From the NCBI GenBank assembly GCA_964561155.1, contig CAZLOI010000003.1:16832-80831 (forward strand): DNA of 64,000 nt. The letters are read 5' to 3'. The notes under the pieces were generated by a model. That model worked only from the letters and a program-made list of their open reading frames with translations. It made no database searches and had not been told where the DNA came from. A program made the translations under genes and the position numbers. The stretch is from an uncultured Candidatus Saccharibacteria bacterium. Its GTDB lineage: Bacteria > Patescibacteriota > Dojkabacteria > J137. How positions within the stretch are numbered: position 1 is the stretch's first letter; each line of letters begins with the position of its first letter. Below, piece after piece: positions 4,649 through 53,879 of this stretch.

Positions 4649-6178
4649 ATGTTCACAAAACGTAAATATCCTACGTCCGGCCACCAAAAACGGACTAGCT
4701 CTAGCGAGTTTAAGCCTAGAAGAGAAGGCTCTAGTGATAGAGGAAATACATCAAGACCTGAAAGGGATACAAGAACCTGGAGTAAATCTACAGGTAATAT
4801 TCCTGCGGGCAATAGATCAGAAGGATCTGACAGACCAAGTTACGCTGCTAGACCAAGCAGAGATGACTCAAGATCTGGAAGTTCTTTTGGATCAAGATCA
4901 AGCTATTCAGCTGACAGAGGAAGCAGAGGTTCATCTTCAAGCTCATATGGAAATAGGAGTGGAGGAAGTCGATACGGAGGCTCTAATGACAGAGGAGGTA
5001 GATCTGGAGGATTTAATCGAGGAAGATCAGGCGGAGGCAGATCTGGAGGAGGAAGGGGTAATAGATTCGAAGGTAAGAAAATTGGCCATGAGAAGTATAT
5101 TGCTAAATCTGAAACTATGGAACAAATAAACCATTATGTTCCTAGTACTTCATTTGACGCACTACCAATTGATTCTAAGATTAAGATCAATATCGCTGAA
5201 AAGGGATACACTCATCCTACAGAGATTCAAGACAAGACTATCAAGCATATTATGGCTGGAAAAGATGTTGTTGGATTGGCAGGAACAGGACAAGGTAAGA
5301 CTGCAGCATTCTTGATTCCATTGATGCAAAAAGCATTGGATAATCAAGAGACACAAGTTCTAATCATTGTTCCAACTAGAGAACTAGCTACTCAGATATA
5401 TGAAGAGTTCAGAACTTTAAATAATGGTACTTTCCTAAGGGCAGAGACTGTTATTGGAGGAGCTTCTGCATATAGACAGATTTCTGGATTAAGGAGAAAT
5501 CCTCAGTTCGTTATCGGAACCCCTGGTAGACTTAAGGATCTAGAAGACAGAAAGGTACTAAGGCTTGAAAACTTTAATACTATTGTTCTAGACGAGGTTG
5601 ATAGAATGTTGGATATGGGATTCGTTGATGAGATTAAGGCTTTGATTTCAAAGTTAAGATCAAGTAGACAGTCACTATTCTTCTCTGCAACTATGGATGG
5701 ACCTGCTGAAAAGATAGCTCACTCATTGTTACACGATCCTGTAACTATTGAAATCGCAAGAACATCACCTGCAAAGAGTGTTGATCAAGATATCATTAAG
5801 ATAGGAAGAGATGGAAGCAAGATAGACGAGTTAGTAAAGATTATTGAAAAGGAAGCTAATCAGAAGATTCTTGTGTTTACAAAAACAAAGAGAGAAGCAG
5901 ACAGAGTTTCAGACAATTTATACGACAGAGGAATCAAAGTTGAAGCAATTCACGGAGATAAGTCTCAGTATATTAGAAACAAAGTTATTTCTAAGTTTAA
6001 ACACGATGAGATTCATATTCTAATTGCAACAGACGTTGCAGCTAGAGGATTAGATATCCCTGATATAACTTTGGTTATCAACTACGATGAACCTATGACT
6101 TATGAAGACTATATTCACAGAATCGGAAGAACTGGAAGATATGGTAAGAAAGGTAAGGCTTTAACGTTTGTAGATTAA
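4649..6178 (+). CDS. DEAD-box ATP-dependent RNA helicase with about 165-aa N-terminal Arg/Ser/Gly-rich low-complexity tail
   Basis: Q motif GYTHPTEIQ, motif I AGTGQGKT, motif II DEVD (variant of DEAD), SAT, HRIGRTGR; N-terminus full of RSGG/SRGS repeats. Confidence 0.9.
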   Translation: MFTKRKYPTSGHQKRTSSSEFKPRREGSSDRGNTSRPERDTRTWSKSTGNIPAGNRSEGSDRPSYAARPSRDDSRSGSSFGSRSSYSADRGSRGSSSSSYGNRSGGSRYGGSNDRGGRSGGFNRGRSGGGRSGGGRGNRFEGKKIGHEKYIAKSETMEQINHYVPSTSFDALPIDSKIKINIAEKGYTHPTEIQDKTIKHIMAGKDVVGLAGTGQGKTAAFLIPLMQKALDNQETQVLIIVPTRELATQIYEEFRTLNNGTFLRAETVIGGASAYRQISGLRRNPQFVIGTPGRLKDLEDRKVLRLENFNTIVLDEVDRMLDMGFVDEIKALISKLRSSRQSLFFSATMDGPAEKIAHSLLHDPVTIEIARTSPAKSVDQDIIKIGRDGSKIDELVKIIEKEANQKILVFTKTKREADRVSDNLYDRGIKVEAIHGDKSQYIRNKVISKFKHDEIHILIATDVAARGLDIPDITLVINYDEPMTYEDYIHRIGRTGRYGKKGKALTFVD

Positions 6179-9318: not shown

Positions 9319-10995
9319 TCAATCTCCTTTTTTCTTTGTAACGTAATACTCTAGATACTTACCAAATATAAGCCTTGTATGAGCCTCTAGACCTGGTAGG
9401 ACGGTTAATAGGAAGCCAACGAAGGGTTGGACTATCCATTCGAATAAATGCTTTATTCTAGTAATTACATTGTTACTCGTATTTGGTTTTAGGAATATAT
9501 CTAGGATAATGACAGGAATCATGCAGAATATCGTTAACTGAATGATACTCGAAGATACTCTTGGTAGATTTGCTCCAAACACTGTGAATGCAAACTCAGG
9601 TCTAATTAGTGCTGGAATATTACCTCCAACCAAGATCATTAAAGATCCCACTGGTCCAAATATATGGTCGAATATTGTGTGAACAGACATATATATCATT
9701 CTAGGTCTTAACTTTCTAATTGGTGTAGAAAACAAGTTCTTAAGAACCCATCCATCATCTGAAATACCCCACTGCCATCTTCGTTCCTGTAAATAGTTGT
9801 TCCTGATTGTTTGCCAATGTGATTCTCCTTCAGCAGCATCAGACATAATCTTTATGAACATTGGAATCGTTTGTACTTTTTCTGGGTATTTAAATAATCC
9901 TTTAAAGAACATGTGGAAATCTTCAGGAGTAACCCAAGGAGTCCAGTATCCAATCTCTTCAATTAACCACAAAGTTGTTGTGTATGTAGAAAATGGAACT
10001 AGCTTATCTGTTCGAATTAATCTTCCTACGTTATATATACTAGACATTGAATTCTTAACTCTTGCATAGAAAGGTAATCTCCAAATATTGTTGTATAGAA
10101 CTAAAGCTCCGTTAAAGTATTTGTATTCACTGTCAGCAATTGTTGAGAATAGATATGTTTGATATGAGAAATATTCTGCTGGTAGCTTTGAATCGGCATC
10201 GCAACTAGTTAATGTTACTCTCTTCTTGTTCCAGCCGAGTAGATTAACCTGCTTTGTAACTTCTCTACCTGCCCATGCCATATTCGCAGATTTACCCACT
10301 GCTTCACCTTCTTGTAGAACATGATTTGTTATCCATATGTTATTAAATACATCTTTGTATTCTTCGCGTAGCTTTTCCGAAACAATAACACCGTTTGGGT
10401 CTGCAGCCTCTGCTGCAAGTACTACATTAATCTGTTTAACTGGAAAGGTTTGATTCTTAAGGTGCTCCATCGTTGCCCTAAGGATTGATTCTGGTTCCTT
10501 AACATGAGGAACAACTACGATATGTTGAATATCACTCCAGTTTGTAATATTGTTTCTAACTCTTTTTATTTCTCCTATCTCTATACCCAAGAACCTTATC
10601 GTTTCATACTTATGGAACATGAATGCAAGACGACCAAACCATTTTCTTGCATTTGGATTCTCTGCTCTATAGGTTTCATAGCTCATGCTTCGAACACCTG
10701 CGATACTGCTTTGAATATTTGAAATGAATTCATCAGGATTCAATGTACTATCCAATCTTTTCCTCCATTGTACTGACTCTTCTCTTCGTATCTTTGCTAA
10801 CGATATAGCGAAGAGTACTGCGAATGAGAATGATTTATACAGAAAATATACGTTTAGTAGGATTATTAATATTGCTGCTAGTTCTGGATTTATAAGACTT
10901 ATTAATAGTGGAAGTATTAAAAGTGAAACTCCAATTATTGGTGGAACCTTTTCTAGAATTACATCGAGATTAGTTTTATTTATATTTTTGGCCAT
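9319..10995 (-). CDS. Membrane-integrated family-2 glycosyltransferase (processive synthase-like)
   Basis: N- and C-terminal TM segments, DxD-type TSCDADS, QERRWQWG (QxxRW) motif. Confidence 0.7.
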   Translation of the reverse strand: MAKNINKTNLDVILEKVPPIIGVSLLILPLLISLINPELAAILIILLNVYFLYKSFSFAVLFAISLAKIRREESVQWRKRLDSTLNPDEFISNIQSSIAGVRSMSYETYRAENPNARKWFGRLAFMFHKYETIRFLGIEIGEIKRVRNNITNWSDIQHIVVVPHVKEPESILRATMEHLKNQTFPVKQINVVLAAEAADPNGVIVSEKLREEYKDVFNNIWITNHVLQEGEAVGKSANMAWAGREVTKQVNLLGWNKKRVTLTSCDADSKLPAEYFSYQTYLFSTIADSEYKYFNGALVLYNNIWRLPFYARVKNSMSSIYNVGRLIRTDKLVPFSTYTTTLWLIEEIGYWTPWVTPEDFHMFFKGLFKYPEKVQTIPMFIKIMSDAAEGESHWQTIRNNYLQERRWQWGISDDGWVLKNLFSTPIRKLRPRMIYMSVHTIFDHIFGPVGSLMILVGGNIPALIRPEFAFTVFGANLPRVSSSIIQLTIFCMIPVIILDIFLKPNTSNNVITRIKHLFEWIVQPFVGFLLTVLPGLEAHTRLIFGKYLEYYVTKKKGD

Positions 10996-35034: not shown

Positions 35035-35649
35035 TTATTGTCTGGAAACCAGGGTCACAAGACCATTATAGACTGGTACTAAATCATGACTACCTATGCT
35101 TGTAGAGTGACTTCCTTTCGGGAACAAAGGATCAACACAGAAATACTTATTCTTTGCGCTATCAAAATATACAACCACTAGATGCCTGCTTTCACTAGGT
35201 AACATTACTGATACCATTGCATACTCGAATTCACCATCCTTCAATTTGTTAAAAACTTCTTCCAATGATATATCTTCAAAGTATTTTGCTTTTAAATCAT
35301 ATAGTCTAAATAGGATCTCGGATATTCTATGGTCATAACCTGCTTTCAAGCTGAACGCAGGCTGGAAAGTTTGATCAGGACCACAAATATAAAATGGTTC
35401 AGAATAAACTTCTTCTGCAGCGCCAAGAGTTATAGGTAAGGTGATCCCACTCTCTAAGTAGTCTCTTTTAGCTACTGCTAGACGATTTTTATGAAGTGCA
35501 CTTAGAAGCTCTACTATTTGTAATGGTAACACTGCAGTCTGAGTCAATTCAGTAACTATCATTGCTACACAGCAAACACCACAGGTAGCTTTTTTCAGAT
35601 CATCATTTTCGAAACTGTCATGTTGATTATAGAAGCTTGATTCTTTCAT
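35035..35649 (-). CDS. Standalone papain-fold C39-like cysteine peptidase domain protein
   Basis: KKATCGVCCVAMIV resembles the C39 Cys motif (DCGxAxLxMI); RHLVVVY...FCVDP resembles the C39 His motif (HFVVL...ADP). Confidence 0.5.
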   Translation of the reverse strand: MKESSFYNQHDSFENDDLKKATCGVCCVAMIVTELTQTAVLPLQIVELLSALHKNRLAVAKRDYLESGITLPITLGAAEEVYSEPFYICGPDQTFQPAFSLKAGYDHRISEILFRLYDLKAKYFEDISLEEVFNKLKDGEFEYAMVSVMLPSESRHLVVVYFDSAKNKYFCVDPLFPKGSHSTSIGSHDLVPVYNGLVTLVSRQ

Positions 35650-36535
35650 CTTTATCTAGTTGATTAAGAATATAATTTGCTAAATGCTTATTGGCCTCGT
35701 GTCCTGGTTTAAGAACCTCGAATCTTCCGATTAAGGCTGCACCTACAAGACCTAAATCTCCAATCATGTCGAGTATCTTATGCCTCACTAACTCTGTATC
35801 ATTTTTTAACGGAGTGATGAATTTATCTTTATTGAATACTATTATGGGTGAGAGCGATGGATCATCCGAAATACCTGGAAATATCTTCTTAACATTCTGC
35901 CAGGCTACACCTTCGTCATCCAATTCAGATCTCATAAAAGATCTTGAAGGAGATATATACCCCAAGTAATTTTCTTTATTAACAACTACTGAATATGATT
36001 GTTTTCCAATTATATTATTAAAATCGATAGTAGCGTTAATTTCATAATAGTCCGAAGGTATTACACGAATATGGGTATCTGTGCTTTCATAGGTAATTTC
36101 TACCTCGTTTGTACAAACAATAGAATGCCGAGCTTGCTCCTGTTGTTTAAGTCCTGCATTTGCTATGAATCTACAGAACTCTTCGGAACTGCTACTTAGA
36201 AATGGTACTTGTCCATTACATAGATCAATGTAGATATTGTCTATGCCCATTCCTCTAATTGCCGAGATAATGTGTTCAATCGTTTTCACCTCTATACCAT
36301 TGGAAGTAAGAGAGGTAGTGTGTGTATATCCATCATCTTTTAGATTTCCGATTACCGCTTTTATTTCCATATTATTAACACTGAAGACAATCCCAGTATC
36401 ACAAGGTGCCGGGCTAAATATAGCCTTACACGTTTCTTTTGAATAAGCAGAGAACCCTGACATCTCAATTGCTAGATCTATCGTCATCTGCTTGGTATTT
36501 GTTTCAATTAATTTGAAAGATTTCATATTATGCAT
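35627..36535 (-). CDS. LpxC-like zinc-dependent N-acetylglucosamine deacetylase
   Basis: TIEHIISAI, VRHKILDMIGDLGLVG and PGHEANKH match the LpxC zinc-ligand and active-site motifs (HKxLD, GH). Confidence 0.75.
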   Translation of the reverse strand: MHNMKSFKLIETNTKQMTIDLAIEMSGFSAYSKETCKAIFSPAPCDTGIVFSVNNMEIKAVIGNLKDDGYTHTTSLTSNGIEVKTIEHIISAIRGMGIDNIYIDLCNGQVPFLSSSSEEFCRFIANAGLKQQEQARHSIVCTNEVEITYESTDTHIRVIPSDYYEINATIDFNNIIGKQSYSVVVNKENYLGYISPSRSFMRSELDDEGVAWQNVKKIFPGISDDPSLSPIIVFNKDKFITPLKNDTELVRHKILDMIGDLGLVGAALIGRFEVLKPGHEANKHLANYILNQLDKDERIKLL

Positions 36536-37424
36536 CTATAAAACATAGTGGGTTTGGGTGTACTAATCTAATACCTACTGTATCTACTATTGCTGTCACA
36601 TCGAATAATCCTCTGGTGACAACTCGACCACCATAATCACATTGCCTAAATCCTCCTCCAAGTGCAATAGAATATGCTCCATCCGTAGCAGACCCCCATT
36701 GGCCTCCAGGATTCCTAGTATGTCCCAGAGCAAAAATAGAAACATTACCTGTTGCGTGATGTAGACCCAGATGATTAGTTGGAACTTCATTAGAATCTAC
36801 AGGTAAAGTTCCTCCTTCGTCTCCATATTCTTTGTCGAATGCGTTAAAGCTGTTCTGTTTACCTTTGATAGGTTTGCCATCTTGTTGATATGGATACTTC
36901 CAATGTTCAGGAGCAGCAAAGGCGACATATTCTGGCTCGGTCGGTAGACGGAAATTCAATCCAGATCGTTTATTCAACCACATACAATATGATATTGCTT
37001 TGCCATAAGTAAGACAAGTTACTGGATGTCTATCACCAGGTGATGTTGATGGTCGTTTATGACCTGGATCGAACTGTTCGAATTCCTCGTTTGTAACAGT
37101 AAACTTACTTACATAAAAGCTTGGGATATTAATTATCTCTCTAACTGGCGTTTCATTTGCTCGACTTCCCTCCAGTTTACATGGCAAGCCTTTATCTTCA
37201 CCCATGTGAACTTTTGAAGGAGAACATAATACAAAGCCTTGTGCTGTTAAAGCTTCTGCTATTTTATGGGCTTCTTGTGTTGAAGTTAATTCCAAAGTTC
37301 TTAGTAGTTGTTGCTCTCTCCAACTCAATCTTTGAGCAAAAACATTAATTTGCTCTGCATAGTCTAATAGATTTGGCTTACTGGTTACTTCATTCATGAG
37401 ATGATAATACATCTCTAAATGCAA
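36528..37424 (-). CDS. FGE-sulfatase (SUMF1/EgtB/PvdO) fold protein
   Basis: VTNEEFEQF, HPVTCLTYGKAISYCMWL and RLPTEPEYVAFAA match formylglycine-generating-enzyme family motifs. Confidence 0.7.
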   Translation of the reverse strand: MHLEMYYHLMNEVTSKPNLLDYAEQINVFAQRLSWREQQLLRTLELTSTQEAHKIAEALTAQGFVLCSPSKVHMGEDKGLPCKLEGSRANETPVREIINIPSFYVSKFTVTNEEFEQFDPGHKRPSTSPGDRHPVTCLTYGKAISYCMWLNKRSGLNFRLPTEPEYVAFAAPEHWKYPYQQDGKPIKGKQNSFNAFDKEYGDEGGTLPVDSNEVPTNHLGLHHATGNVSIFALGHTRNPGGQWGSATDGAYSIALGGGFRQCDYGGRVVTRGLFDVTAIVDTVGIRLVHPNPLCFIDA

Positions 37425-37470
37425 TTATTCATTGTATTACAATACAAATTTATGGAGATTTTTGCGACTA

Positions 37471-42987: not shown

Positions 42988-43791
42988 TTATAGTTGAACT
43001 CTTTTTTCCAATACATTAATTTTATTCTCTAGTTCCCTGTACTTCAAGGCATTCATTATTGATGATGAAACATGTTCAACAAAAGAACTTAAAATCTCAA
43101 ACTCATTATTGAAATTATCTCCGTTATTCTTTGAGAATATTATTGCCCCAATAGCGGTGTTATCAACAATCATTGGAAATGAGATTACGCAACTAGTACC
43201 ATTAAATCTTTGTATTGTATCTGATATTTTGTCTGAAAAAACTTTCTTTGAAAAATCGCGCAACAATTTACTTGTTAGTGGTTGCCTCTCAATGATAGAT
43301 TTAACAACAAAATTCTCTATTTCTCTTAGTGAGATCTTTAAAGTGTTGAACGCCTGAGGAAGGATCTGATTTACAAATTTGGTATACCAAGTATCTGTCT
43401 GTGTCTTAGCATATACATACTGATCATCACAAAGGAATACTAAACAGCCAAATAAATTCAGATCGTAGGCAATTTGATTAGCAGCATTCTGAAGCAAATG
43501 ATCGATATCTAGAGAACTGCTAAGCTTTTTTGCCAGCTCTACAAGTCCGGGTAGTTCATTAACTTCCAGCTCAAATAATGACATTGCGTCATAAGATTTA
43601 AGTTCTAACGCATCAATTATTTTTCTCAATGTTTCCTTTGTTGGATTAACTTGTCCACTCTCAATTCTTGACATACTACCAGGCGAAGCTTCAATTTCAA
43701 GCTCTAGCTCAAACTGACTTTTCCCAGCCCTTTTCCTAAAGTTCCTAATTTTCTCGCCTATTTCTGTTTCTAGTTGCTTATTTGTTTCCAT
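42988..43791 (-). CDS. XRE-family HTH + GAF-like sensor domain transcription regulator (paralog 1)
   Basis: IGEKIRNFRKRAGKSQFELELEIEASPGSMSRIESGQ HTH; C-terminal domain with AIGAIIFSK and FVEHVSSSIMNA GAF-like motifs. Confidence 0.55.
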   Translation of the reverse strand: METNKQLETEIGEKIRNFRKRAGKSQFELELEIEASPGSMSRIESGQVNPTKETLRKIIDALELKSYDAMSLFELEVNELPGLVELAKKLSSSLDIDHLLQNAANQIAYDLNLFGCLVFLCDDQYVYAKTQTDTWYTKFVNQILPQAFNTLKISLREIENFVVKSIIERQPLTSKLLRDFSKKVFSDKISDTIQRFNGTSCVISFPMIVDNTAIGAIIFSKNNGDNFNNEFEILSSFVEHVSSSIMNALKYRELENKINVLEKRVQL

Positions 43792-44563
43792 ATTTTAGTA
43801 CATTAACCTCTGCTTGTAAGACTTCATATCTTTTCGCATTCATAATCGCTATTCCAACATGCTCTGCAAACACCTTGAGTACATTAATCTCTGCTTCAAA
43901 TTTATCAATAATCCCTTTAGAAAACAGTATTGCACCTATTGCCCTAGAATTGACTTCAATGGGAAAACAAAGCGTACATTTGGTACCATTCAGCTTCTGA
44001 ATCAAGTCCGCAACTTGATTTGGAATGAAACCTGAAGTGAAATTATTAAATACTGTACTGTACTGTGGAACCTTCTCTCTAATAGACTTGATGACGTAGT
44101 TATTGGGATTTTTTAACATCGATGCCTTTAGTTTTTTTAGAGGAATTGGCAACATATCCTGTATCTTTTTTGTGTGTACATTCTGTGACATCGCTTCAGC
44201 ATAGACATAATCACCTTCACACAGTAGTAATACACTTCCTAAGAAACCTAATTCATTAGTTATTTCATTAACTGCATATTGAAGTACTTCTTCAAAATCT
44301 AAGCTGCTACTTAACTTTTTTGCTAGATTAACCATTTTTGGGAACTCATCAAAATTCAGATTAAAGAGGGACCCAGCTTCAAAAACCTTGAGATCCAGAA
44401 CTTCAATTACCTTTTGAAGCGTTTCCTTCGTAGGATTAACCTGACCTGATTCAATCCTAGAGATACTTCCAGGTGACGCATTTATTCTAAGCTCAAGTTC
44501 GAACTGGCTTACTCCAGCTCTTTTCCTGAATCTCCTTATTTTCTCCCCTACTGCATTGTCCAT
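43778..44563 (-). CDS. XRE-family HTH + GAF-like regulator (paralog 2); start taken at MDNAVGEK by alignment to paralog 1
   Basis: VGEKIRRFRKRAGVSQFELELRINASPGSISRIESGQ; colinear with paralog 1 along the whole length (AIGAILFSK, FAEHVGIAIMNA). Confidence 0.55.
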   Translation of the reverse strand: MDNAVGEKIRRFRKRAGVSQFELELRINASPGSISRIESGQVNPTKETLQKVIEVLDLKVFEAGSLFNLNFDEFPKMVNLAKKLSSSLDFEEVLQYAVNEITNELGFLGSVLLLCEGDYVYAEAMSQNVHTKKIQDMLPIPLKKLKASMLKNPNNYVIKSIREKVPQYSTVFNNFTSGFIPNQVADLIQKLNGTKCTLCFPIEVNSRAIGAILFSKGIIDKFEAEINVLKVFAEHVGIAIMNAKRYEVLQAEVNVLKYGNK

Positions 44564-44590: not shown

Positions 44591-44618
44591 ACACAATAAA
44601 TGCTCAAAAACATTGTGT
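44591..44618. promoter_or_regulatory. Inverted repeat ACACAAT-N14-ATTGTGT overlapping an extended -10 (TGTGTATAAT on the minus strand) upstream of HTH-GAF paralog 2; candidate operator
   Basis: Palindrome read directly from the sequence; TGTGTATAAT on the minus strand about 25 nt before the ATG. Confidence 0.3.
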
Positions 44619-44630
44619 CGTAATACAAAT

Positions 44631-48876: not shown

Positions 48877-50286
48877 ATGGAAAGAACGCTAGTAAAGGAC
48901 ACTCTGCAAAAGGTAGGTGAAACAGTTATGTTATCCGGATGGGTAGATAATATTAGGGATATGGGTAAAATTGGTTTCATTGACCTTAGAGATAGAACTG
49001 GAAAGATACAGTGTTTCGTAGCTAAAGCTGAAGATCTTAAACAACTTTCTGTTGAAAGTGTAGTTGAAGTAACAGGCCTAGTTAAACAACGACCTGAAAA
49101 GATGATTAATGCGAATGTAGCTACTGGAACTATAGAATTAGAAACAGTATCAATTAAGCTTTTAAATAGAGCAGAAGCTCTACCAATTCCTGTAGAGGGA
49201 GATGGTTATGATATTAACGAAGATGCTAGATTACAATACAGATACTTAGACTTAAGACGAGAAAGACTAGCAAAGGTTGTAAGACTTAGATCTAAGTTCA
49301 TTCGAGCTTTGAGAGAAGCACTTTATGAGCAAGATTTTGTTGAAGTTGAAACACCTATTCTAACTTCATCAACAAAGGAAGGTGCTAGAGACTTTGTTGT
49401 ACCTTCAAGAGTTAATCCAGGAAAGTTCTATGCACTTCCTCAGAGTCCTCAACAGTACAAACAGTTACTTATGGTTGGAGGTGTAGAAAACTATTTTCAA
49501 GTAGCAAGATGTATTAGAGATGAGAACTTGAGAGCAGATAGAGGTTTTGAATTTACTCAACTCGATGTTGAAACAAGTTTTAGAACTCAGGAAGAAGTTA
49601 GAGCTCTAATGGAGAAGGTTGTAACTGATGCAGTTCTTGCAGTTGATGGGAAACTAAAAAAAGGTCCTTTTGCGACATATACGTTTGCAGAAGTAATTGA
49701 GAAATTCGGAGATGACAAGTTTGATATTCGAACAGAGGAAGAGAAAGCTGAAGGTGTTTTGGCATTCGCTTGGGTGACAAGATATCCAATGTTTAAGAAG
49801 GTAGACAAGGAAGATGCAGCAGAGGTTATGGATGGGAAAAGTGGTTGGACATTTACTCATAACCCTTTCTCAGGAATAATTGAGGAACACTGGGATATGC
49901 ATTTAAAAGGAGAGAATATTGATCAAATAGAAGCAACTCAATATGACTTGGTATGTAACGGATATGAGATTGGAAGTGGAAGTATCCGAAACTATAGACC
50001 AGACCTACTAAGAGCTACATACAAGACAATGGGATATTCAGATGAAGAAACTGAGGAGAGTATAGGGCATATGCTAAAGGCGTTTGAGCTTGGAGCACCA
50101 CCACACGGAGGAATTGGACTAGGAATCGAAAGATTAATTATGCTTTTGTCTCAGGAAAAGTCTCTAAAAGAAACTGTAGCTTTCCCAATGACTTATACAG
50201 GAAAGACAGCAGTTATGAATGGACCTTCTGAATTACCCGAACAAGTCCTAAAAGACCTTCACTTAGTCGTTACAAATAAAAAATAA
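48877..50286 (+). CDS. aspS: Aspartyl-tRNA synthetase, short archaeal/non-discriminating type
   Basis: N-terminal OB anticodon-binding domain (LSGWVDNIRDMGKIGFIDLRD), class II motif 2 FTQLDVETSF, motif 3 GGIGLGIERL. Confidence 0.75.
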   Translation: MERTLVKDTLQKVGETVMLSGWVDNIRDMGKIGFIDLRDRTGKIQCFVAKAEDLKQLSVESVVEVTGLVKQRPEKMINANVATGTIELETVSIKLLNRAEALPIPVEGDGYDINEDARLQYRYLDLRRERLAKVVRLRSKFIRALREALYEQDFVEVETPILTSSTKEGARDFVVPSRVNPGKFYALPQSPQQYKQLLMVGGVENYFQVARCIRDENLRADRGFEFTQLDVETSFRTQEEVRALMEKVVTDAVLAVDGKLKKGPFATYTFAEVIEKFGDDKFDIRTEEEKAEGVLAFAWVTRYPMFKKVDKEDAAEVMDGKSGWTFTHNPFSGIIEEHWDMHLKGENIDQIEATQYDLVCNGYEIGSGSIRNYRPDLLRATYKTMGYSDEETEESIGHMLKAFELGAPPHGGIGLGIERLIMLLSQEKSLKETVAFPMTYTGKTAVMNGPSELPEQVLKDLHLVVTNKK

Positions 50287-50287
50287 T

Positions 50288-50668
50288 ATGGAATTACAAA
50301 CATATGTAGAGCTTTCACCAGAGTTATTGGAGGATGTAACAAATCAGATAGCAGGTATTGTAGCTAGAGATAGGAATGCTATTGTCGTCATTGTCTCTAC
50401 TGCTCAGAGTGAATCTGAAGTGGGGGTAACAAAAATGCAAGTATTAAAAGATGCGATTGGGAAGATTCTAGATATGTACTTTGGAAATAGTGAAAACAAC
50501 TATTCATTTGAGAATTACTCGCCTGAGGATTTGCTAACGTTGTACAAGATTGTTGGACCAGCAATATCTGAGGCTTTTGGTGCTCCAAGGAGAGAATCTA
50601 CAGAGTTAGCCGCAGAAAGTCTCTTGAATGCTATTCTTCTGGAATATAGTCCAGAGCTAGAGAACTAG
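50288..50668 (+). CDS. Hypothetical small acidic protein (126 aa)
   Basis: ATG 1 nt after the aspS stop. Confidence 0.4.
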   Translation: MELQTYVELSPELLEDVTNQIAGIVARDRNAIVVIVSTAQSESEVGVTKMQVLKDAIGKILDMYFGNSENNYSFENYSPEDLLTLYKIVGPAISEAFGAPRRESTELAAESLLNAILLEYSPELEN

Positions 50669-50713: not shown

Positions 50714-50746
50714 AGTAGGGACTAAAATGTCTCTACTCTTTTTTTG
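50714..50746. terminator. Bidirectional terminator hairpin between convergent genes
   Basis: AGTAGGGAC-taaaat-GTCTCTACT (9 bp, one G-U) followed by CTTTTTTTG; overlaps the last codons of the minus-strand gene. Confidence 0.4.
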
Positions 50747-51168
50747 AATCTAGCAATAGATTCCTTAGCTTCAGGTATATCTAGATGATCTCTAAAGAAA
50801 TTGTCCCATCCTTTGCCGTTATTTAGACCAGGTGCAAAGTGAGTGAAATCTTCTGGTATAAAATCACTAAAATCTAACTTAAGATATCCCCACAATGTAA
50901 AACCTTCTGTATCATCAGTTTTCGTATATCCGTGTTTTGCTGCTTTATCCTCAATGATATTAAAGACTACATGTACGTTCATGAATCTATATTCATGCAA
51001 AGCCTCATATCTGGATGCAGTGTTTGAACAACTAATCTGTACCCGCGAATTGTCGAAATCTCTTGCAAGATCCATACGTCCAGTCTCAGGAAACTTGGAT
51101 ATTTCTAAAAGAGTGAATATCTTGAGAACAACCTCGTGTAATGTTTTATTATAGATCTCCTTTATCAT
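50722..51168 (-). CDS. Hypothetical protein (148 aa)
   Basis: ORF with no recognisable motif. Confidence 0.4.
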   Translation of the reverse strand: MIKEIYNKTLHEVVLKIFTLLEISKFPETGRMDLARDFDNSRVQISCSNTASRYEALHEYRFMNVHVVFNIIEDKAAKHGYTKTDDTEGFTLWGYLKLDFSDFIPEDFTHFAPGLNNGKGWDNFFRDHLDIPEAKESIARFKKRVETF

Positions 51169-51187
51169 AATATTATTATACTAGGTA

Positions 51188-51213
51188 GGAGAGGGGTACG
51201 AATATCCCTCTCC
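51188..51213. terminator. GC-rich hairpin GGAGAGGG-N10-CCCTCTCC immediately 3' of the GC-rich small ORF
   Basis: 8-bp perfect inverted repeat; composition atypical for the window. Confidence 0.3.
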
Positions 51214-51238
51214 AGGTATTTATGACCGTACAGCCTTC

Positions 51239-51514
51239 TTACCTATTTGGCCAGTTCGGATCGTCGACGTTGTCGCCACGACGCGTGTCATATTGGGCAT
51301 CCTCTTTCGAGGTTCCTTCACCGCGAATATACACGACATCGCCACCCTTATCGTAGACGATATGACCGTGGTTGGAATCATTGTCCTTTCCGATGATCAC
51401 GGCTCGGGCATCGTCACTTGAGCGGGTGTAATGTTTATCCACCTCACCAGTGTTGCGATCATCCCTCTGCTTGTCATTCGAATCCGACTTCTGATTACCC
51501 TTCGGGTCACTCAT
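51239..51514 (-). CDS. Small hydrophilic protein (91 aa from the ATG) in a compositionally foreign, GC-rich (about 52%) cassette; only gene in the window with a strong SD
   Basis: AGGAGG 6 nt upstream of ATG 51514 (complement); protein MSDPKGNQKSD...GHIVYDKGGDVVYIRGEGTSKED...; codon usage rich in GAC, CGC and ATC unlike neighbours. Confidence 0.5.
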   Translation of the reverse strand: MSDPKGNQKSDSNDKQRDDRNTGEVDKHYTRSSDDARAVIIGKDNDSNHGHIVYDKGGDVVYIRGEGTSKEDAQYDTRRGDNVDDPNWPNR

Positions 51515-51626
51515 TGTGAGCCTCCTCACACTATTACCAGGCCAATATACACTGGTACAAAGAGTTTACTCTGGAAGAATCATTTCAACATTGTCATGCA
51601 ATACAAATTTTGGGACTTTTTTTAAT

Positions 51627-52106
51627 CTACCTCTCTAGTACAGAATTAAGGTATATCTCTACCTTTTCAAGTTCTTCGACCAAAGAATCTAGCTGATCTT
51701 GAGTCATCGTTTCAGTTAATATACTTCCTTCAATAAAGGATAGCTCATCATATGCTTGCAGAACTGGAGTCATTAAATGCATATCCTCATCTGGCATATT
51801 CTCTAGGATATAGGTAATATTGTGTAAATACCAACGTACCGCCTCAAGTAAATCAGAAGTTGTATACAACTCTCTTCCATCAAATATTTCAGATACAGGT
51901 CTAATGGTATTCTTGAAATCATCCGATTTCCTCTGCTTTTCTGTAATATTTCTTGAAGTGTAAATTGAAACACAAATAACGGCCACTATTGCCAGAGTGC
52001 TAATTCCTAGAAGCAGAAACTCTTTCAGCTCTTGCTTGAAAGTAGTCCTATTGTACCTATACCTTGGTCTTTCTCTACCAACAGTATACGTGTAGGTATT
52101 CTTCAT
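51627..52106 (-). CDS. Hypothetical single-TM protein (159 aa)
   Basis: ORF with a central TM segment LLGISTLAIVAVICVSIY. Confidence 0.4.
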   Translation of the reverse strand: MKNTYTYTVGRERPRYRYNRTTFKQELKEFLLLGISTLAIVAVICVSIYTSRNITEKQRKSDDFKNTIRPVSEIFDGRELYTTSDLLEAVRWYLHNITYILENMPDEDMHLMTPVLQAYDELSFIEGSILTETMTQDQLDSLVEELEKVEIYLNSVLER

Positions 52107-52210
52107 AAATAAATTATAGCGCCAAGGTGTAATTTGAGGAAGAAATTTGTACTAAGTATCAAGAATATTGAAAGCAATAAATATAGAAGCAATTAAGAAC
52201 AAGAATAACT

Positions 52211-52687
52211 TTAGTTGGAGCAGTCTACCCATTCTCCAACTACAACCTCTTTAAATCCATTAACCTTCATATCTATGCTCTGTGACTTCGTACCACAATT
52301 GAAAGATACATTCTCATTTTTTAATATAGCTGTATCGTAGAAGGTTTGGATATCAAATAGAAACCCAAAAGGTGGTACTCCACCAATAACTAGTCCGTAC
52401 TTTTCATATATCACCTCTGGCTTCTCAAAAGAAAAGTTCTCTCCTATAACCTCTTTTAATTTCTTTGAATCAATCTTCCTGTCCCCTGGCAATACAACCA
52501 TGTAGTTAGCATTGCTCTTTGAAGTACGAAGAATTAAAGCCTTGGCTCCTTCATGTAGCGGTGTACCTCTAACCCTTGCAGAATCGATACTAGTTGGAGT
52601 TGGTTCGTGTTCAAGATATTTAAAAGGAATAGATTTAGAGGAAAGCAATGATCTTATTTGTTCTGATATTTGAATACCTTTGTCCAT
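52211..52687 (-). CDS. YbaK/ProX-type aminoacyl-tRNA deacylase
   Basis: GAKALIL...GLVIGGVPPFGF matches the YbaK-domain signature. Confidence 0.7.
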   Translation of the reverse strand: MDKGIQISEQIRSLLSSKSIPFKYLEHEPTPTSIDSARVRGTPLHEGAKALILRTSKSNANYMVVLPGDRKIDSKKLKEVIGENFSFEKPEVIYEKYGLVIGGVPPFGFLFDIQTFYDTAILKNENVSFNCGTKSQSIDMKVNGFKEVVVGEWVDCSN

Positions 52688-52700
52688 TGAAGTTAAATAA

Positions 52701-52784
52701 TACTGAGGGAGGGAGTCGAACCCTCACGCCCATTACGAGCAACGGATTTTAAGTCCGTAGTGTCTACCATTCCACCACCCCAGC
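52701..52784 (-). tRNA. tRNA-Leu (anticodon TAA), long variable arm, no encoded CCA
   Basis: Hand-folded: acceptor GCTGGGG/CCTCAGT (two G-U), anticodon stem ACGGA/TCCGT with loop CTTAAAA, 16-nt variable arm, T-arm GAGGG-TTCGACT-CCCTC. Confidence 0.8.
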
Positions 52785-52820
52785 ATGTTTGTGAATTATA
52801 TCGCAAAATAAGTATCTGGG

Positions 52821-53879
52821 CTACTTTTCCCTGAACTTAAATCCAGTAGGATTACCCTCTGCAATAACTATCTTGTATGTATGAAACCTCAAACTTGGGT
52901 GAGATATCCTAACATCATATGTTCCCAAAGGAATTGGTGATGACAAAGAGAACTTACCTTCCTGAGATGTAGATACCCTTGCTACAACTCTGTCTGTAGA
53001 AATAAAATCAATTATTGCATTCGGAACTGGGACATCTTTCTTGCTAACAACAATACCAACAATCATCTTTCCAGCTGTAGCCATTCTTTCAAGCTTGTTC
53101 TGCACAGGAGCATTGTTCTTAAACTGATTGTCATTCATGATTAGCTTCACTTCCATGAATAGCTCATTAATCTCCTCAGTTATCCTTCTTTCACTAACTG
53201 GATCCTTTCCAGAATACTTCGAAAGCTCATACTTCAATCTTTCGATCTCCCTTTTGTATTCCTCCATAGAAGCAAACTTCCTTCCTTCTGGTCTTGAACC
53301 CATTGTTTGCTTTGGAGCTACATTCACCTTCTGCTTAGCCACAGTTTCAAATACAGGAACATTTCTTTGAGTATTAATCACCTCTTTCCCGAATACGTCT
53401 TCATATATTGCATTCACATTCTCCTTAGGAGCATCTAGTGTATCCACTGTTTCTGTTACTGGATCTACAACCTTTGGACTACCGAAAAGCTTTTCTAAAG
53501 GTAGTTTGTCTATATCTATCATTTTCTTGTCTAAGGCAGATTCAAGACTTTCATCCTTGGTATCACTTTTAACCATAGGAGAGAAGAGAGTGTCTGTTGA
53601 AACACGTTGCTTCTGCCATACGTATCTTGGGGAAACAAAGATTGCTTTAATATATCCAAAGACCCATTTCTCAAACCCCGGTATTATCGCTGTCATTACA
53701 CCAATACCAATAGCTGCAAGTATTAACGGAATCTTGATTAAAAGGTTAATATTGATTACAAAAATACCAATAGCTACAAGTACACCGACAAGAATTCTTA
53801 CGAATTGCTTAAGTGTAAAGGCACCGAATAGTTTAAATTCTGTGCTTAAAAAGTTTTGTGGTACTGGATGCGGTTCCAT
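52821..53879 (-). CDS. Membrane protein with PrgI/VirB3-like N-terminal motif and C-terminal carboxypeptidase-regulatory-like beta-sandwich domain
   Basis: N-terminus VPQNFLSTEFKLFGAFTLKQFVRILVGVLVAI plus 2 TMs; C-terminus GKMIVGIVVSKKDVPVPNAIIDFIST...GTYDVRISHPSL. Confidence 0.4.
   Translation of the reverse strand: MEPHPVPQNFLSTEFKLFGAFTLKQFVRILVGVLVAIGIFVININLLIKIPLILAAIGIGVMTAIIPGFEKWVFGYIKAIFVSPRYVWQKQRVSTDTLFSPMVKSDTKDESLESALDKKMIDIDKLPLEKLFGSPKVVDPVTETVDTLDAPKENVNAIYEDVFGKEVINTQRNVPVFETVAKQKVNVAPKQTMGSRPEGRKFASMEEYKREIERLKYELSKYSGKDPVSERRITEEINELFMEVKLIMNDNQFKNNAPVQNKLERMATAGKMIVGIVVSKKDVPVPNAIIDFISTDRVVARVSTSQEGKFSLSSPIPLGTYDVRISHPSLRFHTYKIVIAEGNPTGFKFREK

Follow-up and report, generated by a model that had tools for sequence, protein, structure and literature searches.

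Compositional outliers in bacterial genomes are routinely read as foreign. Described systems of other kinds are also pertinent to the locus reported here, namely mRNAs stabilised by a 5′ stem-loop or a strong ribosome-binding site (RBS), as exemplified by the Escherichia coli ompA leader and the Bacillus thuringiensis cryIIIA STAB-SD, and the lambda promoter PRM, at which an XRE-family (lambda cI-like) dimer activates from just upstream of the −35 region, with cI at ~−42. We analysed a window of 64,000 nucleotides (nt; 64 kb) from contig CAZLOI010000003.1 of an uncultured Candidatus Saccharibacteria bacterium, in which one 91-codon gene, hereafter the small gene, keeps a GC content at third codon positions (GC3) about twice that of the genome. 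The first-pass annotation of this window proposed the small gene and its immediate surroundings as a candidate horizontally acquired cassette. Judged from gene order and composition in its relatives, the small gene is instead inherited with its neighbours at this locus across related AT-rich Saccharibacteria genomes, and its GC-richness looks like a maintained property of its message.

The segment does resemble islets of horizontal transfer in its atypical GC content and codons, and in its location in a variable region near a tRNA gene. It differs from them in being shared at the same composition by relatives, in having saturated synonymous sites without compositional drift and in the lack of mobility genes and repeats. 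Like the ompA and cryIIIA messages, the predicted transcript of the small gene has a hairpin at its predicted 5′ end, a nearby AGGAGG and a strong 3′ stem-loop, all conserved across lineages; unlike them, its whole coding region is GC-rich and its RBS is partly buried. The promoter region recalls PRM in having a 16-bp palindrome centred at ~−42.5, at a fixed distance of 22 nt from the −10 box, together with a poor −35 region. The difference from PRM is that the candidate regulators form a tandem pair with a weak GAF-like sensor domain.

The small gene (51239-51514, minus strand; ATG at 51514, stop codon at 51241-51239; positions are those of the window) encodes, as the first-pass annotation had recognised, a hydrophilic protein of 91 amino acids (aa), with a grand average of hydropathy (GRAVY) of −1.69, an isoelectric point of 5.0, 17 Asp and zero Leu, Phe or Cys residues. 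The GC content of 51186-51548 is 0.504 as compared with 0.361 for the window. When the 64 kb were scanned in segments of 363 nt (mean 0.362, standard deviation (sd) 0.029), the richest position began at 51181 (0.512, ~5 sd above the mean) and, outside the small-gene segment, a single other spot barely reached 0.46. Genes were compared within a set of 66 non-overlapping open reading frames (ORFs) that cover 91% of the window, with the first ATG taken as the start, so that some starts may be wrong. In this set, the GC3 of the small gene is 0.58, the mean is 0.28 (sd 0.06) and the next highest value is 0.40, and the synonymous-codon log-likelihood of the small gene lies ~6.9 sd below that of the other genes. 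The earlier descriptions of a GC-rich cassette in AT-rich DNA, and of codon usage unlike that of the neighbours, are borne out by these values. All three Ala codons are GCC (background 0.06), three of the eight Arg codons are CGC (background 0.01) and all six Val codons are GTC or GTG (background 0.15). The amino-acid content of the protein is not the main cause, as a rewrite of the same protein in background codons has a GC content of 0.397 ± 0.015, versus 0.519 observed, and amino-acid content accounts for only ~0.04 of the 0.16 excess. The bias usual in highly expressed genes was also ruled out; the ribosomal-protein genes for L21 and L27 have GC3 values of 0.15 and 0.29, respectively.

Relatives of the small protein are few. 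A word-indexed search of 5.8 billion protein clusters matched 4 clusters, an exhaustive HMMER search of 1.84 billion representatives returned 6 matches, of which 5 were true and 1 was a spurious eukaryotic repeat protein, and a second, wider profile search contributed only 3 further members. Scans of GTDB genomes and of metagenomes gave one true match and one match, respectively, a scan of viral contigs found no relative of the small gene, and neither did tblastn against phage and plasmid sequences. Pfam, NCBIfam, PHROGs and PADLOC have zero matches for the small protein or for the 148-aa protein encoded downstream of it, and a profile search of PDB sequences had zero matches for the small protein. 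The small protein is, on these counts, a very rare orphan family. Contigs were fetched for family members, and the loci on them are designated here by L numbers.

Next to the aspartyl-tRNA synthetase (AspRS) gene, L006, L007 and L001 repeat the local order of the window, in which a 159-aa gene is followed by the small gene, then by the 148-aa gene and AspRS. In L008, from a metagenome-assembled genome at NCBI labelled uncultured Candidatus Saccharibacteria, the small gene, the 148-aa gene and AspRS are together and a YbaK-like gene replaces the 159-aa gene upstream. Across the locus, nucleotide identity to the window is ~97% for L006 and 83-92% for L007; the L001 small protein is 64% identical to that of the window, as is that of L002, and the adjacent L001 148-aa protein is 61% identical. 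A small gene is present at every fetched locus that has a clear 148-aa homologue and sufficient upstream sequence (L001/L002, L006, L007, L008 and L015-L020). Together with a homologue of the 148-aa gene it also occurs in a second context, beside tandem XRE-type regulator genes (L003-L005), and in a third, upstream of a 455-aa gene (L015-L020). The first-pass annotation had itself stated that relatives with the same gene at the same locus and of the same composition would argue for an ancestral gene. This is what L006, L007, L001/L002 and L008 have, and its proposal of a horizontal acquisition, in the sense of a recent import, is not supported. The mis-assembly that it had also considered is excluded because the same junctions are present in at least five independent assemblies. 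No direct or inverted repeats or insertion scars were found to bracket the cassette and there are no mobility genes, such as an integrase, for the segment. An ancient transfer into the ancestor of the clade is possible. L007 is a mosaic, 90-100% identical to the window up to ~51335, within the small gene, and from there an L001-like allele through the first two-thirds of the 148-aa gene, with flanks that are 88-92% identical to the window. The sequence encoding the C-terminal part of the small protein was, therefore, exchanged together with most of the neighbouring gene.

The composition of the small gene has been held while its synonymous sites turned over. On nine contigs of the closer lineages (the window, L001, L003, L006, L007, L011, L016, L017 and L021) its GC content is 0.48-0.53 versus 0.32-0.37 for the surroundings, and the distant members L013 and L014 are also GC-enriched. 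Synonymous differences between lineages are saturated (proportion of synonymous differences 0.65-0.95) and of the 31 columns in which the amino acid is invariant, 27 show synonymous variation, but GC3 is still 0.55-0.65 in each lineage. At conserved sites, Arg is encoded by CGN in 11 of 12 codons, whereas the genome uses AGA for 67%, and Pro is encoded by CCG or CCC in 10 of 12 codons, although each of these makes up 3-4% genome-wide, where CCA and CCT are preferred. A foreign composition would have decayed over such turnover, and the composition of the small gene is, therefore, maintained at an equilibrium rather than being a fading foreign signature. The DNA surrounding every family member with a fetched contig has a GC content of 32-42%, and no family member was found in high-GC DNA among the contigs fetched from the 5.8-billion-cluster and profile-search matches. 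GC3 has thus been kept through complete synonymous turnover in episymbiont lineages with reduced genomes, in which weak synonymous selection is expected. Something specific to this gene must act on the sequence, whether this is mRNA stability or folding, a gating of translation or biased conversion.

Wherever synonymous divergence could be estimated, the ratio of nonsynonymous to synonymous divergence (dN/dS) of the small gene is 0.16-0.22 by the Nei-Gojobori method. Substitutions among the homologues are concentrated at third positions, and differences in length are whole codons in the N-terminal tail. With dN/dS at ~0.2, the small gene therefore encodes, by the evidence of its codons, a real protein. 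This has a variable, disordered N-terminal tail followed by a conserved core of ~60 residues common to the homologues (KHYxRSDG..VIxGD...HGHIVYDxxGDVVYIRGEG, with YDxxxGDNVDDPNWP at the C-terminus); residues G50, H51, G58, D59, Y62, R64 and D76 are invariant in the wider family. An AlphaFold model (predicted local distance difference test score (pLDDT) of 62) has four strands after the disordered tail, and a Foldseek search with this model found no match below E 0.9 and nothing similar in PDB. An apparent frameshift in the L008 copy is a run of 10 N, an assembly gap. The antisense strand also has an open frame, but an overlapping antisense gene was rejected; the frame is open due to the lack of Leu codons and scarcity of TCA in the small gene and is not specifically conserved.

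The GC-rich zone coincides with the predicted transcript of the small gene, ~51556 to 51188 on the minus strand. The predicted −10 hexamer is TAAACT (51563-51568), and the −35 position reads ATGTTG, a poor match, as are its equivalents elsewhere. A hairpin, ACCAG.UG...GC.CUGGU (51536-51556), begins 6-9 nt past the −10 box and would thus be at the very 5′-end of the transcript. The fold is obtained for all of the lineages tested, with pairing in 36/36 cells as compared with 9-50% when the partner is slid by 1-3 columns, and two pairs have changed in a compensatory manner, giving CCAG.UG...GC.CUGG in one group and CCUA.UG...GC.UAGG in another. Downstream, just past the stop codon, is a GC-rich stem-loop of 8-11 bp (51188-51213; GGAGAGGG...CCCTCTCC), already noted in the first-pass annotation, that overlaps the −35 region of the next gene. 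As an intrinsic terminator it would have the stem-loop but not the U-run, as the stem is followed by UACCUAGUAUAAU on the gene strand, and a terminator scan gave it a score on the opposite strand only; even so, it may serve to end the transcript or to protect it. Equally strong 3′ hairpins are formed from unrelated sequences in L003, L011, L015, L016 and L021, with folding z-scores of −4.9 to −6.5. The predicted transcript as a whole folds at −122.8 kcal/mol (z −2.66) and the coding region at −0.30 kcal/mol per nt, versus −0.17 to −0.25 for the neighbouring genes. In six lineages, the coding region is modestly more stable than shuffles of its synonymous codons (z −1.1 to −4.0; controls −0.1 to −1.7). 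A conserved RNA structure within the coding region is not supported, the consensus fold being weak (−10.8 kcal/mol, with a covariation term of −0.58). The picture of a self-contained small coding unit that carries signals of its own for translation and at the 3′-end, and has a composition unlike that of its neighbours, is in this respect an accurate one.

An AGGAGG (51526-51521) followed by CTCACA, and so 6 nt ahead of the ATG, provides the small gene with a canonical Shine-Dalgarno (SD) arrangement, a GGAGG-type motif 5-10 nt ahead of the start. The first-pass annotation placed this motif in the loop of a hairpin and considered it the only strong SD in the window. The hairpin (UGUGAG-GAGG-CUCACA, 51515-51530, minus strand) is there with GAGG in the loop, but the AG at the front of the motif belongs to the stem; and this AGGAGG is the only one that precedes a gene start, although there are 29 copies of the motif in the window. 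In relatives the site reads AGGAGG, AAGGAGG or GGAGG. L008 has kept the hairpin through two compensatory pairs (GCAAG-GAGG-CUUGC), and in L016 (GCAC/GUGC stem) and L011 (CAUCU/AGAUG stem) a GGAG core is in or at a small predicted hairpin; the GCAC/GUGC stem is possible for L021 as well, the minimum-energy fold of which is, however, a different one. Pairing of the small-gene start with the anti-SD sequence was calculated at −12.2 kcal/mol, stronger than at any other of the 66 starts (the next were −9.4 and −9.1), the 3′-end of the organism's 16S rRNA being outside the window. The lack of SD motifs that had been noted at about a dozen other starts agrees with the set as a whole; as a class, the 66 starts do not exceed random positions in anti-SD pairing, with 7.6% versus 8.0% at or below −6 kcal/mol. 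At ~18 of the 66, a TATAAT-like hexamer precedes the first ATG by 0-9 nt. Together, these patterns suggest that leaderless or SD-independent initiation is widespread in this organism; a literature search on SD and leaderless usage in Saccharibacteria and Patescibacteria turned up nothing useful. The small gene is a natural example of an RBS-dependent gene in a genome that otherwise apparently does not use an RBS.

An operator-like palindrome, TTGTATTGCATGACAA (51591-51606, minus strand; extended motif AAATTTGTATT-N5-ACAATG), occupies approximately −50 to −35 of the predicted promoter and ends exactly 22 nt upstream of the −10 hexamer. The form TTGTA-N6-TACAA is found upstream of the small gene in L001, L003/L004, L006, L007, L008, L016/L017 and L021, and the 22-nt spacing to a TAnnnT-type hexamer is present in six lineages (TAAACT, TATATT, TATAAA, TATATT, TAAAAT and TAGAAT). 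The 64 kb contain exactly three matches to TTTGTATTNNNNNACAAT without a mismatch, each of them between genes and on the strand of the small gene; the number expected, even with one mismatch allowed, is 0.49. The second copy (44613-44628, minus strand) is 22 nt upstream of TGTGTATAAT, ahead of tandem paralogous genes (42988-44563, minus strand) for XRE-type helix-turn-helix (HTH) and GAF-like regulators of 261 aa (43778-44563) and 267 aa (42988-43791), with Pfam matches to HTH_3 (1e-10 and 5e-7) and weaker ones to GAF_2 (1e-4 and 1e-3). The third, a perfect palindrome TTGTATTGTAATACAA (37432-37447, minus strand), is 22 nt upstream of TATTAT, with an ATG a further 6 nt on. Three sites in the window and sites in eight lineages lie 22 nt from a −10 box, as would be expected for a regulon that shares an operator. 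The same arrangement is present ahead of the regulator pair in L007 (16094-16111), and the small gene of L003-L005 is adjoined by a tandem pair of genes whose HTH domains are homologous (51-58% identity, E ~1e-20), divergently in L003 and L004.

Given this distribution, the tandem XRE-GAF proteins are candidate regulators of the palindrome-bearing promoters. The palindrome would be positioned as for a class II activator, and its presence ahead of the regulators' own genes suggests autoregulation. The poor −35 region, and a palindrome shared with the XRE-GAF genes, argue that the small gene is probably activated by these proteins, but repression is equally possible. To our knowledge, almost nothing is known of transcriptional regulation in Saccharibacteria, and a palindrome, a promoter at fixed spacing and tandem XRE-GAF regulators provide a first sketch of a regulon in these bacteria. 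Further TTGTA-N6-TACAA sites are present in L008 (3589-3604, 4325-4340 and 5440-5455) and L021 (2992-3007), with 22 nt to TATAAT from those at L008 4325 and L021 3007, which are ahead of small genes of 180 aa and 98 aa, respectively. The regulon must, therefore, extend beyond the three promoters of the window. The third palindrome of the window precedes a gene pair (35627-37412) encoding an FGE-sulfatase-like protein and an LpxC-like deacetylase, and its location suggests that the real start of the FGE-sulfatase-like gene is a downstream ATG at ~37386, with a leaderless message. L007 has a partial duplication of the left half-site ahead of its small gene. L015 has no palindrome; its upstream region (5800-6000) differs from those of L016 and L017, with genes for a 1022-aa restriction-modification-type enzyme and a 341-aa protein, and has two copies of a different palindrome, TCAGCTGA. 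The L015 small protein begins MAGLNKHYER as compared with MADPNKHYERMNDG, and its downstream gene is 95% and 99% identical to those of L016 and L017, respectively.

The downstream 148-aa gene (50722-51168, minus strand) has an ordinary composition (GC3 0.29) and a TATAAT box (51175-51180, minus strand) 6 nt upstream of its ATG, a leaderless-type promoter. A TATAAT-like box (TAAAAT in L003) followed by 5-7 nt and an ATG is conserved at every locus with the pair, and in most lineages the gene after the small gene is the 148-aa gene or one distantly related to it. The structural model of the 148-aa protein (pLDDT 89.9) opens with a helix, continues as an antiparallel sheet and closes with a second helix at the C-terminus. 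Foldseek gave a probability of 0.98 for a match to p32/MAM33, a weak likeness of topology; like p32/C1QBP (MAM33), the 148-aa protein is acidic and, in the model, has a long antiparallel sheet between its two terminal helices. A type II toxin-antitoxin pair was considered for the two genes and rejected, given the 70-nt gap with a strong hairpin and TATAAT-like box that separates them and the lack of any Pfam, NCBIfam, PADLOC or PHROG match.

The explanation towards which we lean, although with modest confidence, is that of an inherited orphan small-protein gene, with its own transcription unit, the GC-richness of which is kept by selection on its mRNA. The small gene would be a separately controlled single-gene transcription unit, probably switched on by ligand-sensing XRE-GAF regulators. 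The transcript would have a terminal 5′ hairpin, an RBS half-buried in a second hairpin, an ORF written in the GC-ending codons that are rarest in the genome and a strong 3′ stem-loop. Selection on the mRNA, our best guess for the cause of the GC-richness, would favour a compact, strongly folded and probably long-lived message. Most genes in this organism appear to start translation without an RBS, on AT-rich or leaderless 5′-ends, and a message folded to this extent would need a strong binding site for any translation; the RBS hairpin could, in addition, gate translation. The small protein, with its disordered tail, four-strand core and invariant His-Gly-His, most likely works with the downstream protein, in most lineages the acidic, p32-like 148-aa protein or one distantly related to it, as a binding pair of two proteins, but we propose this with little confidence. 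The case is small and clean and can be tested by recoding the gene.

Several observations weigh against this explanation. In it, we infer the transcription start, activation by the regulators, the lifetime of the mRNA and the partnership of the proteins. The folding gained beyond the effect of GC content is modest, with overlap between the small gene and the controls, the coding region of the small gene yielded no specific conserved structure, and the compensatory changes in the leader may stem from only one or two evolutionary events. The assignment of GAF domains to the regulators is weak. The distant member L012 has no GC excess (0.43 vs 0.42), and no relationship to the 148-aa protein is detectable for the gene downstream in L011 or L021. 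The L007 copy of the small gene (9655-9930), which was not called by the gene finder, has an in-frame TGA at the invariant Gly42 (GGA to TGA), and so, as read from this sequence, the protein can be lost or interrupted in at least one strain.

Other explanations were considered for the GC-richness itself. The composition of the segment might be set by its codons, with CGC/CGG, CCG/CCC, GCC, TCG and GTC/GTG making translation dependent on scarce tRNAs, a mirror image of the Streptomyces TTA/bldA device (the window itself has four tRNA genes). The very low codon log-likelihood (~6.9 sd below the other genes) and the conservation across lineages of rare Arg and Pro codons are consistent with this, but the shift to G and C is general, affecting first as well as third positions rather than a few key codons, and extends to the untranslated leader and 3′ region, and we regard such gating as unlikely. 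GC-biased gene conversion at a recombination hot spot might keep the segment GC-rich with no selection on function, and both the L007 breakpoint at ~51335, inside the small gene, and the repeated rearrangements between tRNA-Leu and AspRS are evidence that recombination occurs here. This explanation is weakened because the L007 recombined tract includes the 5′ two-thirds of the 148-aa gene, with its normal GC3 of 0.29. In every lineage, moreover, the GC-rich zone stops sharply at the boundaries of the predicted transcript, and the same enrichment accompanies the gene at loci in other genomic contexts, so that conversion seems to us quite unlikely. Were the segment a recent import from a higher-GC donor, its composition, RBS and terminator-like hairpin would be leftovers of that donor, and the extreme composition and codon usage, the three genomic contexts of the gene pair and the recombinant L007 mosaic could all be read in this way. 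The neighbourhood is also variable, and close relatives lack both the YbaK-like gene that abuts tRNA-Leu at its 3′-end and a 126-aa ORF beside AspRS. Such an import is nevertheless improbable given that several relatives share the gene, its place and its composition, and in view of the saturated synonymous sites at which each lineage has held its GC3 with no decay towards the host, the absence of high-GC, phage, plasmid or viral relatives and of flanking repeats, and the similar divergence from L001 of the small protein (64% identity) and the 148-aa protein (61%).

In AT-rich genomes, an island of high GC content often proves to be an RNA gene, and the segment might, alternatively, specify a structured non-coding or dual-function RNA in which the ORF is incidental. 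It is an island of ~370 nt with terminal hairpins, the folding z-score of the whole transcript is −2.66 and the L007 copy has an in-frame stop. Set against these features are the dN/dS of ~0.2, the whole-codon indels, the third-position substitutions and the weak consensus fold of the coding region, and also that the L008 frameshift is merely 10 N. The RNA databases gave no encouragement; only the 4 tRNAs scored above the Rfam gathering threshold in the window, with no other covariance-model match, a permissive scan of 50900-51800 (E up to 10) returned only chance-level matches with E values of 0.6-6 and no known family, RNA thermometers included, and ARAGORN found no tmRNA in the window. We consider an RNA gene very improbable. 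Cultivated Saccharibacteria live attached to high-GC Actinobacteria, and the small gene might instead be written for translation in the host cell, as a message or gene meant for expression there after transfer. The canonical AGGAGG, a site that the organism otherwise does without, and the conserved preference for GCC, CGC, GTC/GTG, TCG, CCG, ATC and GAC raise this idea, and the genes of Agrobacterium T-DNA, which bear plant expression signals, offer a parallel. A GC content of ~50% is, however, only intermediate and no transfer signal is evident, making expression in the host the most improbable of the explanations considered. Selection on the mRNA of an inherited gene thus remains the preferred explanation.

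The region between the tRNA-Leu and AspRS genes has several further differences in gene content. In the window, a YbaK-like aminoacyl-tRNA editing gene (52211-52687) lies exactly at the 3′-end of tRNA-Leu(UAA) (52700-52785), and a 126-aa ORF (50288-50668) lies between AspRS and the 148-aa gene; segments 52160-52698 and 50235-50661 are absent from L006 and L007, and the 126-aa ORF is also missing from L001 and L008. By these comparisons, the tRNA-Leu to AspRS islet is a hot spot of small-gene gain and loss. Approximately 1.3 kb from the small gene, 52821-53879 encodes a 352-aa protein, conserved in L007 and L008, that has a weak, below-cutoff N-terminal match to PrgI-like membrane proteins (type IV secretion, VirB3-like) and a C-terminal carboxypeptidase-regulatory-like beta-sandwich.

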